From assembly GCA_010405405.1 (NCBI GenBank), contig MU004232.1, positions 1,073,481 through 1,137,480 of the forward strand: a DNA stretch of 64,000 nt, in the 5' to 3' direction. The DNA is from Microthyrium microscopicum. Taxonomy: Eukaryota. Positions 4,182-63,737 of this stretch are shown one piece after another. The position numbers and the translations under genes are program-made. Positions within the stretch are counted from its first letter, which is position 1. Each line of letters starts with the position of its first letter. The notes below the pieces were generated by a model. That model searched no databases. It saw only the letters and a list, made by a program, of their open reading frames with translations, and was not told the origin of the DNA.

Positions 4182-5368
4182 TATTTGAGCACGGTGATAA
4201 CCGTACCTAAGCTTTCAATCGAGTTTCAATACCACTATGAAGAGTGTCGGGTGTGGTTCCTGCTGTCAATGACTAAAAACCCTCATCTGGAAATTATTCA
4301 TCTTCAGATTTTGTCACTTTAACCACATCGCTCAAATAGGAACTTCTTTCCTAGTCTTATCATGAAAAGTTTTCAAAGCTATCGGAAATTTCAGCTGGGA
4401 TGAGTCTTAAATCCCATTTCTAGTCATGCTTCCCCTTTATCTCCACAGATTATCGGTCCAAGTGTCGAAAATATCACGAAGACTTTGATAGCAACCAGCG
4501 GGAGCGGGCCGATGGCGCGGAATTAAAAGTCACCCATTGAGTCACTTCTGTGCGTTTCTCGCATCTCGATATCCATATTTCAGAACATGTGAACCCAACT
4601 GTTTTCTCCCTGTTTTAAAAACTGGAGTATAGAAAATGGTATTTTCATTACTACCACAGGGGTGAATGGGGTCCAAGCCTCCATTTCAGCCTGATGGCGA
4701 CTGTGGCATTGAATTATGTAGCCTTATGATTGGAATTCTAACCTTCCATAAACTATTGATATCTCTTAGTATAACATCCATGATATTGTACCTATGGCAG
4801 AATGTATACAGCGGATTAGTCGGTGACTGCCCGTTAATGAAGAAAATATGCAACCGATCTCGCTCCAAGCAAAAACCACAAGCTGTCTCCAGACCCAAGT
4901 ACTGCGATATCATTGGCTGAATGCTTCCATTGCACGACACTGAGTCGAAATCGCCTTTGATCTACGCTAAAGGCCATTGGAAAGCGCCGATTCGGTCACT
5001 TATACCCAGTCTATTCCCGAACGATTTTATTTGAATCCGGACGTTTGACGGTGTATTTGTATAGGTTGATGTCGCTGTTGGACGAGGAGTGTTTGAAGCC
5101 AGTATTCTTGTTCTCAAAATTTGAGCGATTCAACTTTGGTAAGCTTTCCTATAAAAATTACATTCAGACACTGAAAGTATTGTTGGCTCCCATCAGAGCT
5201 GATGGTAATCTTCGTATCGCGTGCTGCTGCTTGACGTCTGTGGAAATGCTCCACAGTAATCTTTCAAAGGCTATATAGAAGTATGCTGGCTACTACTATC
5301 ATACCGTTCCAGGAAGAGCCAGTATCGTCTTGCTAATAGTCCATTGCAGGTCGCTCCTGCTGCCCACA

Positions 5369-8300
5369 ATGGCTACTGGAAAGTACTCCGAGAAGGGCGT
5401 TCCTTTCCATCACTCCTCAACCCCTTCACTTCACGAACACGACGCCGAAAAGTCTGAGGACATCGAGCGTCAGCTCTCTCACGGTCATGATTCAGAGATG
5501 TCCAAGAATGGCACTCATGGTAAGAATTCCGCGTGTCAAATCACATATCCTGACGAAAACCAATGGAACCAACAACGTCGCATTTCCCATCGCATGCGAT
5601 GGCTCCCAAGGAAGGCGTTCCTAATTGAGTGCTATGGATCCCACTAGATGCGATGGACCTTTTACAATTTCAGCCGGGAAGGATCAGAGAGTCCTTCAAA
5701 GCGTGTTGGTTCTGTCCGTCATCTCATACTGACTAATTTCAGGTGCTGCCAATACTGACGGCGCCGATCTGCGGCCAATCCATAGTCGAATATCCGCCAT
5801 GGAAGTGGTTACCACGGAGGATCCCTATCGCGAATCCGGCGACGAGATCTATGACAAGTTTTCTTCGAAGCAGAAATGGTAAGTCTTCATCGTATGCCGA
5901 TATTTTGTGTTGGTACCATATCGTGTTATGGCTCCCACAGCACTCGATGGCTGCCATGAAACGCGATGGGATTTCGTGCTGAACGGGTTGAATGGTCTAC
6001 TTCAAAAGAACATTGGCCCCGATCGCATTTGCTGACAGATTTTAGGGTCATGACTGCCGTTCTTTCATATTGTGGCTTCTTGGCTCCAATATCTTCCACA
6101 ACCATATTGTCAGCAGTGCCAGAAGTAGCAGCCGACTTTCACACTTCAGGAACCATAATAGCTGTCTCGAATGCCTTGTATCTCATATTCATGGGACTAA
6201 GCCGTGAGTTCATAATCTGATCCTCCGTATCGAGTGATCCCGTCTGACATAGTGAAGCACTCTTTTGGGGACCCGTGGGCCAGATCTATGGTCGTCGATG
6301 GCCGTGCTTAGTGTCATTGTTGCTCTTCTTCGCCTTCTCCCTAGGAACCGCCCTCTCACCTAATCTCGCCTCCTTCTTCATTTTCCGCGTTCTTACGGCG
6401 TTCCAAGGAACCAGCTTGCTCATCATTGGGGCAAGCTGCATTGGCGACATCTTCAAGCCAGTAGCAAGGGCCACAGCTCTAGGCTGGTTTCTTTCCGGAA
6501 CGCTCGTCGGACCAGCATTCGGCCCCTTTGCTGGCGGTTGCATCATAACATATCGAACCTGGCGGGACATCTTCTGGTTGCAAACCGCTCTTGCCGGTGC
6601 AGGTGTCGTCCTCGTGTTTTTCTTCCTAAAAGAGACCATTCACTACAAGAAATCCACCGAGCTCAAGGGCCTGACGCCCAAGGCATATGCCAAACAGTAC
6701 TGGGTAATATTGCCCCCTACAAAGACACAATATCTTGGTGCTATTGGAAACGCTGCCCATGCTAGTGGTGGCTGCCAGCGCATTGGATGGCTCCCATACG
6801 ATGTGTTCCTGATCGAGTGCTGTGGTTGCCATCGAATGCGGTGGGTGTTTTATGGTTCCACGCCGAGGAGACAAAATGGGTTTTCGCAGCGTGTTAGATC
6901 TGGAGGTAGCCTTATGCTAACAAATTCCAGGAATGGTCCAACCCATGGCGTGTCGTCCGCCTCTTTCGCTATCCGAATCTTATAATAGTCAGCGTGGCAA
7001 GTAGCAGTCTTGTTTTTAACATGTATTCCGCGCTCACGCCGATTCGATACATCCTGAATCCACGGTAAGATTTCCTCGTGCCAAAGCACTTTTTTTGAAG
7101 GCATACGACGAGACCAAAATCCATATCATCTCCCATGGTATTCGATGGCTTTCATAGAATGCGTTCCTGATCGACTGCTATGGCTCCCATCACACTCGAT
7201 AACTCTCCCTTGATAAAACCATTTTGTAATCTTGCACTGACAAAGTAAAGGTTTCATCTAACGACCCCGATGCAATCTGGCTTTATCTACCTGGCTCCAG
7301 GCGCAGGATATCTGCTTGGTACTACCATGGGCGGCCGGTGGGCTGATCGGACGGTCAGACGCTGGATAGCGAAGAGAGGTCATCGGGTTCCAGAAGGTAG
7401 GCTTTTTGAGAATTGCTGTGTCCTTTCGCTCACTTTTGTCTCCAGATCGGCTCCACAGTGCTCTTCCGTTTATGGGAGGCGTTATTCCAGGTAAGGTTTA
7501 CTTGTGCAAAGGATTTTGTATTGATACCATCGCGTGTCATGGCTCCCATAGCACTTCATGGTCGCCTAACCTGCGATGGGATTTCGTGCTCGAAAGCCAA
7601 ATGGTCTTTCCAGCGTGTTGCGCCTGATTGCCACGTTATACTAACGTACTCCAGCGGCCATGTTGGTCTACGGATGGTGTGTCCAAACAGAGTCAGGTGG
7701 CATTGCAGTACCAGTTGTGGCGCTCTTCGTGCAAGGTGTTGCGCAACTCTTCTGCTTTCCGTGTCTGAATGTCTACTGCCTGGTAAGATTTTCCTCGGCC
7801 AAACTACATTTCTTGACGACATCCGATGAAATCAAAAGACATGGTACTCCCATCGTATTCGATGGCTGCCATAGAGGGTGCTTCGTATCGATTGCTATGG
7901 CTCCCATCACACTCGATAACGCTAACAGATTTCAGGACGTGATGCAAGGCCGCAGCAGCGAGGTTGTTGGTAAGTCTCTCCTGCCCCAGTTTCCTTCCAA
8001 TTTCCTAATGTTTGTAGCGGGCAATTACGCAGTCAGGTATTTCTTCGGCGCGATTGGCACAGCAGCTGTCCTTCCAGCTATCCAGAAGATTGGTCCGGGA
8101 GGATTTTCTACTATCTCTGCAGGTTTCCTGTTTGCTGCTACTGGTTTGGTGTACTTGACGGCGAGGTTTGGCAAAGGATGGAGAGAGAAGATCGATAGTG
8201 ATAGAGCTGTGAGAGAGGTAAGATTCACGCCGAAACTGGTGGAGGCTACCAGCACATTCGATGGCTCCCATAACGTTCGTTTCTGATCGAGTGTTATGGT

Positions 8301-8438
8301 ACCCATTGAATGTGATGGGCATTGTTCCGTCTACCACGAAGAGACAAGATGGTCTGTTCAATGTGTGCTGGCTTTGTAGTTGTGGTTTATACTGACAAAT
8401 CCTAGGCTGGGGAGACTGCTCAGGTTGCCGCGTCTTGA
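5369..8438 (+). CDS. MFS DHA1-type (Qdr/Dtr1-like) transporter, 11 exons
   Basis: Introns 5520-5742, 5879-6045, 6204-6257, 6704-6930, 7065-7250, 7397-7445, 7491-7654, 7783-7935, 7970-8017, 8218-8405 are all GT-AG with branch sites; splicing gives one open frame with GPVGQIYGRR, GDIFKPVARATALG, GPAFGPFAGG, WRDIFW, PEDRL. Confidence 0.88.
5587..5656 (+). repeat. Intronic palindromic element, 70-nt type (intron 1)
   Basis: CCATCGCATGCGATGG-CTC-CCAAGGAAGGCGTTCCTAATTGAGTGCTATGG-ATC-CCACTAGATGCGATGG. Confidence 0.9.
5916..5969 (+). repeat. Intronic palindromic element, three-unit type (intron 2)
   Basis: CCATATCGTGTTATGG-CTC-CCACAGCACTCGATGG-CTG-CCATGAAACGCGATGG; 19-nt period. Confidence 0.9.
6775..6844 (+). 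repeat. Intronic palindromic element, 70-nt type (intron 4)
   Basis: CCAGCGCATTGGATGG-CTC-CCATACGATGTGTTCCTGATCGAGTGCTGTGG-TTG-CCATCGAATGCGGTGG; an extra degenerate unit lies just upstream. Confidence 0.9.
7133..7202 (+). repeat. Intronic palindromic element, 70-nt type (intron 5)
   Basis: CCATGGTATTCGATGG-CTT-TCATAGAATGCGTTCCTGATCGACTGCTATGG-CTC-CCATCACACTCGATAA. Confidence 0.9.
7527..7579 (+). repeat. Intronic palindromic element, three-unit type (intron 7)
   Basis: CCATCGCGTGTCATGG-CTC-CCATAGCACTTCATGG-TCG-CCTAACCTGCGATGG, followed by GATTTCGTGCT as in intron 2. Confidence 0.9.
7850..7919 (+). repeat. Intronic palindromic element, 70-nt type (intron 8)
   Basis: CCATCGTATTCGATGG-CTG-CCATAGAGGGTGCTTCGTATCGATTGCTATGG-CTC-CCATCACACTCGATAA. 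Confidence 0.9.
8249..8318 (+). repeat. Intronic palindromic element, 70-nt type (intron 10)
   Basis: CCAGCACATTCGATGG-CTC-CCATAACGTTCGTTTCTGATCGAGTGTTATGG-TAC-CCATTGAATGTGATGG. Confidence 0.9.
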
Positions 8439-8723
8439 TGATGTTCTTGTTTGTTATATGCTTCCGTTCTCTTTTGAATATTTTTTTGGTGGGTACTGTT
8501 TGGGATACTCGTACCTCAGACACCTAGGCAAGTAATGGTAGTTTATTGACACGAGGCCTAGAAGATCCTACAAGTTATTACCAAGTGTATTGTATTAAGA
8601 CTTACTTCCACTTGAATACACCCTATATATGTCTACGCTTCGGCAAGCGCCTTTTATAGTCTGCAAAGCTATCGTACACCCATAAACCAACCACCCCTAC
8701 GCCATGCAATGTAATATACCTAT

Positions 8724-9433
8724 TTAGACAACACGTTTGACCTGGAATAGCCACACCCGTTAGCCAAGCCCATTCACTACCTCAACAGCACACTCATTCT
8801 CACCTCAAAGAAGCGCTTGATCCACCACACCTGAAACGCGCCATTGCCAACTAAGATAATCAGCTGGAACAGACTCCACCACTTAACGCGCGCGTTTGTG
8901 CTCTCCGCCGTATTTCGATGCGTGCGTTCGCGCACTACAATGTATCCTTGCTCGTCCTTCACTTGCGCCATCAATTCGCTGAGATGTCGAACTTCTTGAT
9001 CGAGTGGGTCGGCAGGCGCTTCGTGCTCGGGAACATAGACAATACCGTGAACGTTGAAGGAGACTTCTTTGCTGTTGGCGCTCCAGTGCTCGTTGCTGAA
9101 ACAGTAGATGTATTTGCCGTCTTGGGAGGCTGTGAAGGAGTGGTCGCCGTATTGGACGGAACGTTCGTGGAATTGGTAGCCGCCAGAGGGATTTGTTACC
9201 TGAACGGGTTGTTAGTTTGGCGTGGGAGATAAAGCGGCTAGGTAGTTTACCCAGAAGTCAATGTCGAGGTTACCGCTGCCGCCAAATTCGCGGTCGCCGA
9301 CTTGGAAGGTTACGGTCATCTTGTCGTCGGAGTGGAGTTGTTCGTGGAAGCATTCTCGCGAATGTGCCTTGAGTTGGATGTTATGGGCGGCGGCAAGGCC
9401 TAGAAAGGAGAAGAGGAGCGGTAACAGCAACAT
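8724..9433 (-). CDS. EMP24: p24/GOLD-domain cargo receptor Emp24 (2 introns)
   Basis: Signal peptide MLLLPLLFSFLGLAAA, ECFHEQL, RERTHRNTAESTNARVKWWS, TM segment, C-terminal FFEVKRVV. Confidence 0.92.
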
Positions 9434-9807
9434 GATGATGGTATGGTGGGTGTAGAAGCTTCGCGATGGGGAGAAGATGGAGGATAAATAAAGTTGACAC
9501 TTTTCGATGCGATGCGATGCCCCTTGAACGCACGGACCATCATCATGATCTCGTCTTGAGATTAGACGCCATTGGCTCATACATGGCTAAGTATTGTTAT
9601 TGTTTTATTTGAAAGTCTTGCCATAAGTATTTACTAGACTTGTGAGATTACTTTGGGGAGTTTTTTTTTAAAAGAGAGACCGAATTGTGATTTGTACAAG
9701 TTAGAGAAACTGACAATGCTCTGTGCTTTCATTCGAATATGACCATAGTTCTATACCTCACATATCTGATGCTATCAAACGGGCTTAATGCAGTCATTAC
9801 ATCGTTC

Positions 9808-29371: not shown

Positions 29372-29535
29372 CTGTTCCTTGGTGTTCAAAAAGCTATTCA
29401 TCAACTGGACTATCCATATCGGCCTCGCTCATTTCCTCATGTTCAGAATGCTAGTCATCGAGTGGACTATCCATATCACCCTGGTTTGTTTCCTCATGTT
29501 CAGAAGGCTATTCATCGCCAGGATAACCCATATCG
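29372..29535. repeat. About three tandem 57-bp repeats overlapping the ATG18 stop codon
   Basis: CTA(T/G)TCATC recurs at 29394, 29451, 29508; TGGACTATCCATATC and TTTCCTCATGTTCAGAA each occur twice. Confidence 0.85.
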
Positions 29536-31054
29536 CTCTTTTGATCCAACACACTAAAATTTGTTATTATCAATCCTGATTTAGAAGGGGTAATGAACTT
29601 ACGAGTACTGCTTTTCCAAAACACCCTCGCCCCCGCTCTCCAGAGATAGTGTGTAGACCAAAAACTGGCCTTCACTCGTTACCACCATCAACTGTGGATG
29701 GGCCCCACTCATCGCGACAACGCTTTTGACGGGACTTGTGCCTGGCCCACCCAGCTGTCCTCGTGCTAGGCGCGGTACTTTGACCCACGCAAAGTCTCGT
29801 GCGGGCTCCCACATTTCTGTGACAGAGCTTGGGAGGTAGCCGCCGACGCGTGCAGCTAACGAGAGGCCAACGTTCTGTGAGGTCCGCCGGATCATGCTAG
29901 CCAAGGTGTTTGATGCTGGTCTTGGTGGTGGGGATGGATCATGAGTCGGTGTTCCCATGTCATCGTCGCTATTTGAGCCACTACGATCTAAGCCTGATGA
30001 GAATGATTCGCTGCGTCGTCGCGAAACTGCGTCTGGTGTAGTTGGGCTAGCTGGTTCGGGGGGCGAGACACTACTTCCCGCCTGCCGGGACGAAGATTGC
30101 TGGGCTACGAGCTTAAAGATGTGGATGGTTTCGGTGGCAGAGGACACAGCGAGAAGAGTGGAGGCGGCATTAAAGGACATGCAGTAGATCTGGGCAGGTA
30201 GGGACCCACGTCGAAAATGGAAAAGGCGTTCTCCAGACGGAATGCTGAAGACACGGATAATAGTTCCTTTCTCTGAAGCTGTGGCGAGCATGGTGCCGGA
30301 ATTGTTGATGGCGAGGGAGCCAAGGGTGGTCTGGTGGGCTTCAATGACGTTAACGGATTCTATCTTGTTGGTATCATATATGAGGACTTCGCCTGTGGTT
30401 GGGGGAAGGAAGTTGCCGGTGGGTGGTGCGTGGGCTGGTTGGTTATAGGATGATACTGACTGCTTGGATGGTTGTGGAAATGCCATAAAGTTGTTATCTG
30501 AATTCGGCGAGAGTGCACAGAGGCCTTGACATGGTTAGGTAAGTTGTTTCGTTTTTTGCGGAACTTACCATGAGGATTTGGTGAGGTCTCAACTGTACTA
30601 AGGAGCTTCATGTTACTCATGTCATAGATATAGATGGCGTCTTCGAGTACAACCACTAAGCGCTTTCGATTCATGCGAACTGCCAATATTTTCATTGGAA
30701 ACGTGAGTTCGCATATGGTAGTGTTTTTCTAACTCTCCGTCAGGCCACCATTTAGTTCCATGCAGTCGATATACAAACCTTCGTATTAAGAATTCGGAGC
30801 AGACGTGGTGATAATATCAGAGCAACAAGTGAAGTGGAAAAGAGCATTTCCATGATCGATACATCTCCTTCTTCGTTACCATAGTAGACACTGAAAGGCT
30901 CTGTTGTGTAGAGCTTGAAACCTTTGGACGAACCTTGTTATGCCAGTTAGCTAAATCTCTGACAAAGTAGAATGATAGTCTCACCTACTCCCAACAGGGA
31001 GTTGTCCTGGTTGAAAGTCACAAAGTTCAACGCCATCCCCCGAGTATTGCTCAT
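29508..31054 (-). CDS. ATG18: Autophagy PROPPIN Atg18 (WD40), multi-exon
   Basis: [47 protein letters not shown] lipid-binding motif, [11 protein letters not shown]; last exon ends [18 protein letters not shown]. Confidence 0.93.
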
Positions 31055-35698: not shown

Positions 35699-35910
35699 CA
35701 ACCGATGGACAAAATGACTGGCGTGCCCCAATCACGTCCAATGGCTCCCACCAACGCTTTCAAACAGCACATACTATAATTTCCATCAAAATCCATCGAT
35801 AGAGGTGGAACAAACGTAGTCCCTGGGAAATAAAGCACTCGATAACAAAGCGTGGCAGATGGAGCCATAGAAGTCGATGGGAGCACGCCAGTTATTTTGT
35901 CCTTCGGTTG
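35699..35910. mobile_element. MITE-like element with about 60-bp imperfect terminal inverted repeats
   Basis: Left CAACCGATGGACAAAATGACTGGCGTGC versus reverse complement of right end CAACCGAAGGACAAAATAACTGGCGTGC; flanked by direct repeat ACAACT (35693-35698, 35911-35916); non-coding. Confidence 0.72.
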
Positions 35911-62576: not shown

Positions 62577-63174
62577 TATTCAAAGAAGCTTTCATCTGAC
62601 AAATTGTTGGCTATGGCGCAGTGACTAAAAAGAAATCTGTGCGGTAAACAAACGGCATTAAAATCACTACTAAATCCTCCACTCTGTTTGTTTGTTCTAA
62701 GAAGATGGAGGCTTTGTCTCAGACTAGTATGTGTGATAGGACCTTATTATGATGTTTATTTCCAATACCACAAGCACCTTATTTTACTACCGTTTGTTCC
62801 ATGGTTTGGGCGTGTGGCGTTGCAGTGACGTTCGTCTCAGCTTTGAAAAGATGCAATACTTAACCTACCAGACACTGCAAGGTACCTAATCGCTTGGAGT
62901 CTATCAAAAGCTATATACATCCCATAGCTTCTGCCGGAATGGTTGCGCGAATGAAAAAAAGACTTAGTACTTTCGTCAAACTTCCCAGGAGCACAACATA
63001 AAGTAAGCATTAATATCAAGAGCAGAATGTGCATCCATCAAAGATCATGTTTCTCTTGTGGTCATTATCTGAGCTGGCCATGTCTTTGCTGCTCTTGATT
63101 GTCGGTGCCAGAGTTTAGGTCTACAGTTTGCAGCAAACAAATCCTATTGCTCTCCATACCTAGGTAGGTACCTA

Positions 63175-63396
63175 CCATAGCGCGCGAGGGGGAGTTTTGC
63201 AAATGATCATAGGGGAATCTTAGGCAAGAACGAATCACTTTAGCATGTTATGATCGTTTTTATTCTTCTTAATTATGCTTTAATCATTATAACGACAATG
63301 TCTACATAACTGCAATCGGCAAAGGGGAAGAAATTGTAGATTTGTGTACCAAATCATCATATGAGGATTTCTATAACTCCCCCCTCCACGCTATGG
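63175..63396. mobile_element. MITE-like element with TA flanks
   Basis: TA|CCATAGCGCGCGAGGGGGGAGTT ... AACTCCCCCCTCCACGCTATGG|TA; about 23-bp imperfect TIRs around an AT-rich core. Confidence 0.6.
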
Positions 63397-63737
63397 TAGT
63401 TGATTGATGTCATCAAATTCACGATACCAGACCTTTATATGATCTCCATGTGATAGCACCCCTCAGTGGTCAAAGTTTCAAACGATGGTGAAGAGTAAGA
63501 GCTGAATGTTATCGCCGCCGTATGATCCAACCAAGTAAAATTGGCAGATCATTCTATAAGCTCCTTGGGATCCATATCACCACCACTGTTACGAATGTGG
63601 CGTACGAATTGTGAACAGCACAGCTTAAAAAGTATTTAAAACGCGTATCTCCTTGATATATTCCCACTTATACCTTTCTCACAATTTGCAACAGAGCAAG
63701 AAATTGATATATAAGCAATATCATTGACGAATATAAG

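Follow-up and report, generated by a model that had tools for sequence, protein, structure and literature searches.

Within a 64,000-nt stretch of the Microthyrium microscopicum genome (contig MU004232.1, positions 1,073,481 to 1,137,480 of the forward strand; hereafter the window, numbered from its first nucleotide), introns of a gene encoding an MFS transporter were found to carry copies of a 70-nt hairpin-forming sequence. These hairpins very probably represent the best-conserved central part of a family of introner-like elements (ILEs), that is, spliceosomal introns which multiplied as whole units and were inserted at new gene positions; seven copies reside in this gene. ILEs belong to the few cases showing the birth of spliceosomal introns, and the mechanism of their movement in ascomycetes is unsettled.

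Several properties described for ILEs were recovered at this locus. The repeat unit is a complete GT..AG intron with a branch point, and its length of 153-227 nt exceeds that of the regular introns of the same gene (48-54 nt). Furthermore, folding energies are lowered, with z-scores of the cores down to -6.68 and of whole introns of only -0.48 to -2.75, and the introns occupy recently gained positions that are absent elsewhere among metagenome homologues.

Long and short introns of the transporter gene

The gene is encoded on the plus strand from the ATG at 5369 to a stop codon ending at 8438 and comprises 11 exons and 10 GT..AG introns, corresponding to 536 codons. Exon 4 is 100% identical to the annotated 'MFS general substrate transporter' P0122 (467 aa) of M. 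microscopicum, a Dothideomycete, and the product of a neighbouring gene shares 99% identity with another protein of M. microscopicum. From exon 3 on, the gene model coincides with P0122, with agreement on introns 3-10. Seven orthologues align without gaps across all 10 junctions and match exons 1 and 2 (GDEIYDKF..., DIE(K/R)Q); removal of intron 1 is required to connect the DIE(K/R)Q motif of exon 1 with exon 2. These orthologues, together with a spliced contig, support the 536-aa protein starting at 5369 over the 467-aa P0122. The public model of the latter begins at an ATG within intron 2 (5879-6045).

Two size classes of introns are present, namely three of 48-54 nt (introns 3, 6 and 9) and seven of 153-227 nt (introns 1, 2, 4, 5, 7, 8 and 10). 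Their features are listed below (MFE, minimum free energy in kcal/mol; X5, a run providing spliced contigs; HMM, hidden Markov model).

Intron 1, 5520..5742, plus strand: ILE copy, 223 nt; 70-nt core 5587-5656; core MFE -22.5, z -1.70
Intron 2, 5879..6045, plus strand: short-core ILE variant, 167 nt; 54-nt core 5916-5969; GT..AG joint in X5
Intron 3, 6204..6257, plus strand: ordinary intron, 54 nt; no ILE HMM match; joint in X5
Intron 4, 6704..6930, plus strand: ILE copy, 227 nt; core 6775-6844; MFE -34.4, z -4.26; joint in X5
Intron 5, 7065..7250, plus strand: ILE copy, 186 nt; core 7133-7202 with degenerate outer arm; MFE -15.9, z -0.94; joint in X5
Intron 6, 7397..7445, plus strand: ordinary intron, 49 nt; gene model; joint in X5
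Intron 7, 7491..7654, plus strand: short-core ILE variant, 164 nt; 53-nt core 7527-7579, 81% identity to the intron-2 copy; intron in P0122
Intron 8, 7783..7935, plus strand: ILE copy, 153 nt, 3'-truncated; core 7850-7919, 84% identical to the intron-5 core; intron in P0122
Intron 9, 7970..8017, plus strand: ordinary intron, 48 nt, at an old shared position; gene model; joint in X5
Intron 10, 8218..8405, plus strand: ILE copy, 188 nt, with a deletion near the 5' end; core 8249-8318; MFE -34.7, z -6.68; joint in X5

The seven long introns can be aligned end to end, from the 5' splice site to the branch point and the terminal AG, with a mean column identity of 60%. Introns 1, 5 and 8 share 61 nt beginning one base before the GT (repeat family D3), and the 3' ends of all seven share ACTGACAAAT..YAG. 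Judged from these alignments, the hairpin appears as the conserved middle of a larger repeat and not as a free-standing regulatory RNA.

Concerning the hairpin itself, a previous sequence-only reading had described five 70-nt copies with an invariant layout of 16+3+32+3+16. All five were recovered, in introns 1, 4, 5, 8 and 10, and their alignment is gap-free over 77 nt. Identities to the intron-5 copy amount to 65-84%, pairwise identities among the cores to approximately 62-84%, and the mean column identity over the 70 columns to 83%. The structural details of that reading likewise held: the intron 10 copy forms a 12-bp inner helix with two G-U pairs and a paired outer arm (MFE -34.7 kcal/mol, z -6.68), the 3x3 internal loop was seen in five of five copies, the paired change between introns 4 and 10 corresponds to columns 6/65 (GC in four copies, AU in one), and the outer arms of introns 5 and 8 do pair poorly (core MFE -15.9 and -25.1). 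In introns 2 and 7, a shorter 16+3+16+3+16 variant occurs, built of three 16-nt CCAT...ATGG modules. Sequences matching ATGGCTCCCAT with at most one mismatch were counted 12 times in the window versus 1.54 expected (at most 6 in 100 shuffles), 10 of them between 5183 and 8271.

In order to evaluate whether the long introns are spliced, joints in contigs of run X5 were considered; this run was taken as RNA, a guess made on the strength of its intron-less joints. GT..AG joints skip exactly introns 2, 3, 4, 5, 6, 9 and 10, and thus four of the seven ILE introns, with skipped lengths of 167 nt (intron 2), 227 nt (intron 4), 186 nt (intron 5) and 188 nt (intron 10). Moreover, restoring the conserved protein requires the removal of all seven. 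Unspliced contig pieces are present for introns 1, 4, 5 and 8, and one X5 contig keeps intron 8 with introns 9 and 10 spliced. With 153 nt, intron 8 (7783-7935) is a multiple of three in length and contains no in-frame stop codon; its retention would add 51 codons.

A search of the window with a profile of the seven introns yielded no other match below an E-value of 0.2 except 35811-35910, which is part of an intergenic element addressed below. An additional copy may precede the coding region:

5139..5349, plus strand: candidate degenerate eighth copy, putative intron of the 5' untranslated region; starts with GTAAGCTTTCC (ILE consensus GTAAGATTTCC) and ends with CTAAT ... CAG

This candidate contains TGGCTCCCATCAGAGCTGATGG, i.e., one CCAT...ATGG module, and its HMM match is weak (E 0.31). 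In the sole X5 contig covering it (5111-5378), it is unspliced.

Dispersed copies and intron gain

In order to find further copies in the genome, public contigs were aligned to positions 5000-8600 at 80% likeness, which sets the floor for the copy identities reported here. For the genome-type run X1, 43 contig pieces aligned, one of which represents the whole stretch, and 40 of the 43 match partly, on the cores. Matches confined to 5582-5672, 6775-6857 or 7798-7876 were given by separate X1 contigs, each showing 13-19 differences. At position 6822, the summed depth reaches 1658.6 compared to 100.5 for the single gene-bearing contig (about 16 contigs). Two loose ends located immediately upstream of other copies possess a GGTAAGT and a GGTAATATCC of their own. 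Since copies are present on other contigs, two of them with a separate 5' splice site, the family appears to be dispersed, and at least some of the other copies appear to be introns as well. A 22-base degenerate pattern fitting all five cores gave no matches in a metagenome scan.

For the evaluation of intron gain, 80 homologous MFS loci from metagenomes sharing 45-68% identity were compared, with intron positions mapped approximately by tblastn. These loci possess 1.5 introns on average and at most five, compared to ten in the gene analyzed here, and many of their introns measure approximately 45-60 nt. The following numbers of loci cover each intron position and feature an intron within three residues of it.

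Intron 1 (ILE): 37 covering loci, 0 with an intron
Intron 2 (ILE): 71 covering loci, 0 with an intron
Intron 4 (ILE): 70 covering loci, 0 with an intron
Intron 5 (ILE): 64 covering loci, 0 with an intron
Intron 7 (ILE): 60 covering loci, 0 with an intron
Intron 8 (ILE): 57 covering loci, 1 with an intron (locus L051)
Intron 10 (ILE): 8 covering loci, 0 with an intron
Intron 3 (short): 76 covering loci, 1 with an intron
Intron 6 (short): 62 covering loci, 0 with an intron
Intron 9 (short): 51 covering loci, 9 with an intron

Accordingly, none of the 80 loci (8-71 covering each site) has an intron at exactly the position of any of the seven ILE introns. For intron 9, the same position and phase were confirmed by eye in locus L053. 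The L051 intron (4204-4298, 95 nt) lies 5 nt upstream of the intron 8 position, in another phase and with no similarity to the family; it is an independent intron nearly coincident with intron 8. Searches of the 80 loci with the ILE profiles and with the intergenic element at 35.8 kb returned no matches. The insertion of a transposon into older introns was considered and ruled out, as the shared sequence extends to both splice sites and introns at exactly these positions are absent from the homologues examined.

Mode of insertion, the intergenic relative and known introners

The founding element is envisaged as having had splice signals at both ends and a central foldback, in which case the palindromic core would have been inherited rather than selected here as a regulator. 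G|G sites of transcribed genes appear to have been the entry points of the copies: G is the last base of the upstream exon at seven of seven ILE introns and the first base of the downstream exon at six of seven. Insertion was most likely RNA-mediated, through reverse splicing at such sites and subsequent reverse transcription. The same two steps are the favoured mechanism for ascomycete ILEs (PMC3609843; PMC9860276; here and below, the cited papers are represented by excerpts).

The extra ~100-170 nt are probably looped out by the foldback in the pre-mRNA, which would bring branch point and 5' splice site close to the spacing found in the normal ~50-nt introns and let the over-long introns splice. 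In yeast, intron structure is known to draw donor and branch point together. The retention of intron 8, whose outer arm is degenerate, in a contig with two spliced neighbouring introns agrees with foldback-aided splicing and proves nothing. Truncations and divergence suggest that the family is old and decaying, as indicated by core identities of ~62-84%, the 5' deletion in intron 10 and the 3'-shortening of introns 5 and 8.

Outside any gene, a relative of the family was identified in the window:

35699..35910, minus strand: intergenic ILE relative resembling a miniature inverted-repeat transposable element (MITE), 212 bp; ~50-nt terminal inverted repeats; flanking direct repeat ACAACT

Its arms are 82% complementary (MFE -101.8 kcal/mol, z -8.66), and the 6-bp direct repeat ACAACT is perfect on both sides. 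Compared to the ILE profile, it scored an nhmmer E-value of 6.2e-5 (35811-35910), the best decoy on the reversed window reaching 0.19; used as query, it matches intron 10 over ~135 nt (E 0.0015). The element is a lead toward a DNA-transposon origin of the family; alternatively, it may have arisen by secondary inverted duplication of an ILE fragment.

Following this lead, it is tentatively proposed, as a rather doubtful extension, that the ILE family and a true DNA transposon possessing inverted termini have a common ancestor. The sequence at 35699-35910 would then be the mobile DNA form, the intron form would be the same element framed by splice-signal sequence (~37 nt on the 5' and ~19 nt on the 3' side), with the 70-nt hairpin as a remnant of the foldback. 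If true, ascomycete ILEs would not be an RNA-only exception among introners, and local reinsertion would account for the crowding of seven copies into a single gene. Located 27 kb away from the gene, the transposon-like relative offers a concrete test case for the DNA-transposon origin of a fungal ILE family.

The claim that the family basically is a DNA transposon (a MITE or a composite of a short intron and a MITE), with the hairpin as a vestige of inverted repeats and the cluster as the result of local hopping, is unlikely. Phased DNA sites for a dimeric protein, the alternative named in the sequence-only reading, would be conceivable only in the shape of such a vestige. It can draw on the inverted termini and the flanking repeat of the relative, on its homology to the ILEs over 100-135 nt, and on the observation that neither strand is favoured in pairing, as expected of a DNA palindrome. 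Cut-and-paste transposons are known to reinsert locally. Most classifiable introner families elsewhere are reported to derive from inverted-repeat DNA transposons (PMC12130899). However, the unit of homology is the intron itself, including ~37 nt upstream of the point where the similarity to the 35.8-kb element begins. The palindrome of the intronic copies is internal, beginning 31-71 nt from the 5' splice site, and terminal inverted repeats are absent from them; a constant target-site duplication was not found at the intron boundaries, which share only 1-4 nt of microhomology of variable length. In addition, a single such relative was seen, which could itself be secondary, and ascomycete introner families are the reported exception lacking inverted termini and flanking duplications (PMC9860276). 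Compared to the introners derived from inverted-repeat DNA transposons in Micromonas, Aureococcus, dinoflagellates and others (PMC9860276, PMC12130899), the family is similar in being non-autonomous, hairpin-forming, multi-copy and intron-creating, and in that its 35.8-kb relative bears inverted termini together with a flanking duplication, but its intronic copies differ by their lack of terminal inverted repeats and of a constant duplication.

The RNA-mediated multiplication of whole introns is preferred over these transposon scenarios, and the closest known counterparts are found within the same fungal class. ILEs of Dothideomycetes were reportedly described by van der Burgt and colleagues in 2012. 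According to the excerpts, ILEs have roughly double the length of regular introns, with a lower predicted free energy and with compensatory mutations, and they decay until they resemble ordinary introns (PMC3609843); they occur in Dothideomycetes, where a decayed family was described for D. septosporum and insertions within 15 bp of regular introns of other fungi were termed 'parallel gains' (PMC4457414). Like the Dothideomycete ILEs (Collemare et al. 2013, PMC3609843; Collemare et al. 2015, PMC4457414), the elements described here are whole canonical introns present at many loci, with two to four times the length of regular introns, a stable predicted structure, occasional compensatory changes, decay of sequence and length, and positions absent from other fungi. 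The location of intron 8 within 5 nt of the unrelated L051 intron likewise recalls the parallel gains within 15 bp (PMC4457414). By contrast, the copies are more diverged (62-84%), seven of them are clustered in one gene, where the excerpted text of PMC4457414 stresses genes with two, and outside any gene there is a relative that bears inverted termini as well as a flanking duplication. The comparison with published ILEs was made by described features and not by consensus sequence, and the excerpts do not name the host species.

Internally symmetrical sister (stw)introns of Hypoxylaceae (PMC8469720) are comparable in that fungal introns proliferated, contain long inverted repeats through which the intron RNA could become double-stranded, and integrated seamlessly at new positions without flanking duplications. 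They differ, as far as excerpted, by terminal inverted repeats of 45-55 nt and many nested twin introns, compared to an internal palindrome, simple introns and another fungal class in the present case. Repeats inserted into pre-existing introns, as in Rhytidhysteron, Fusarium graminearum and Sclerotinia (excerpts of PMC3609843), also place repeated sequence inside introns; here, in contrast, homology reaches both splice sites and no homologue shows an exactly matching position. A full-text literature search found no paper joining Microthyrium microscopicum with the term introner; the supplementary species lists of the large surveys (PMC9860276, PMC12130899) were outside its coverage.

Several observations weigh against the ILE interpretation. 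The near-identity of active ILE families (98-99%) is lacking, the copies in the window being only 62-84% identical; as this is the one ILE feature missing, the family is read as old and decayed. Seven copies lie in one 3-kb gene and none in the other genes of the window, and scattered insertion would predict otherwise. The gene context of the copies elsewhere is visible only as 5' splice sites in two loose ends, and no joint for introns 1, 7 and 8 is among the X5 joints listed. The 80 homologous loci are a mix of orthologues and paralogues with unproven orthology, and their introns were mapped by tblastn only. Compared to dinucleotide shuffles, whole introns show weak z-scores on the sense strand (-0.48 to -2.75), and those on the antisense strand are similar. 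Finally, the relative with terminal inverted repeats and a flanking duplication is unlike the RNA-only picture of ascomycete ILEs.

The kind of element is already known, the clustering in one gene and the transposon-like relative being its more unusual sides. As a compact exhibit, the locus combines three old short introns with seven family introns at differing stages of decay, displaying the full hairpin, the degenerate outer arm and 5' and 3' truncations, with at least four of the seven still being spliced out precisely. It is also convenient for testing whether the foldback is needed in splicing over-long introns.

The hairpin as a candidate RNA structure

In the sequence-only reading, the hairpin had been interpreted as a conserved RNA structure, acting as splicing regulator, as a protein- or ligand-binding element or as precursor of a small RNA. 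The shared hairpin-forming sequence is real and plausibly folds in the pre-mRNA; a dedicated regulator, a ligand-binding element or a small-RNA precursor found no support. Its proposed covariation was not significant: on the sense strand, the proposed structure pairs 77.9% of cells in the five-copy alignment, with the covariation score attained in 207 of 500 shuffles; the power of a test on only five sequences is low. The description of 'co-varying arms' was overstated: three of 28 pairs change on both sides, a number reached by 75 of 500 shuffles. On the antisense strand, pairing is about equal (75.7% of cells; 68 of 500 shuffles reach the covariation score). Searches of 4500-9500 with Rfam covariance models on both strands gave no matches at E-values up to 1, and a mobile intron of known kind accounts for the hairpin.

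Strand preferences are also divided among helices and copies. Pairing of the inner helix is better on the sense strand (80.0% versus 61.7% on the antisense strand), that of the outer helix on the antisense strand (86.3% versus 76.3% on the sense strand). Of the seven cores, those of introns 2, 4, 8 and 10 fold better on the sense strand and those of introns 1 and 7 on the antisense strand (intron 7: MFE -27.9 versus -20.9 on the sense strand), with intron 5 being equal. Sense-strand z-scores of -2.58 or lower were obtained for five of seven cores (introns 2, 4, 7, 8 and 10), and folding of the cores of introns 1 and 5 does not exceed that of shuffles (z -1.70 and -0.94). Folding energies per nt are -0.20 to -0.33 kcal/mol for whole ILE introns and -0.004 to -0.13 for the three short introns, the lengths of the two classes being different.

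A selected functional RNA element is thus very unlikely to be the reason for the hairpin. Its best arguments are the higher conservation of the core compared to whole introns (83% versus 60% mean column identity), the absence of indels in the five cores with many in the flanks, the sense-strand preference of the inner helix and the retention of intron 8, with its degenerate outer arm, in the RNA-like contig. Against it stand, besides the covariation and Rfam results, the antisense preference of the outer helix and the two cores folding no better than shuffles, the presence of the same element on many other contigs and of a relative in an intergenic spacer. Moreover, homologous genes exist without these introns; the gene therefore does not need such an element. 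The palindrome is real, but there is no evidence of its maintenance as a sense-strand RNA structure, and the indel-free core beside indel-rich flanks is a soft hint of some constraint. As a candidate for a regulatory RNA, the hairpin is ordinary and already explained.

Copying of introns only inside this gene, for instance by reinsertion into its own transcript or by recombination and without a genome-wide family, retains next to no probability: seven or eight copies in one gene and none in the other genes of the window, as well as the three closest core pairs within the gene (introns 5/8 84%, 2/7 81%, 4/10 77%), speak for it, but the exons adjoining the introns are not duplicated, and dozens of partial matches on other contigs are 80-84% identical to the window copies and thus as close as these best within-gene pairs (77-84%), so that copying inside the gene does not explain the cluster. 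Segmental duplication was likewise ruled out, as the flanking exons are not repeated.

Two further repeat structures were observed in the window. At 63172-63399, a second foldback with 40-nt arms (78% complementary, 148 nt apart; termini CTACCATAGCG.../...CGCTATGGTAG) has no other copy in the 64 kb. At 29383-29553, a 57-nt unit is repeated three times in tandem with 63-81% identity, just upstream of a long open reading frame on the opposite strand.

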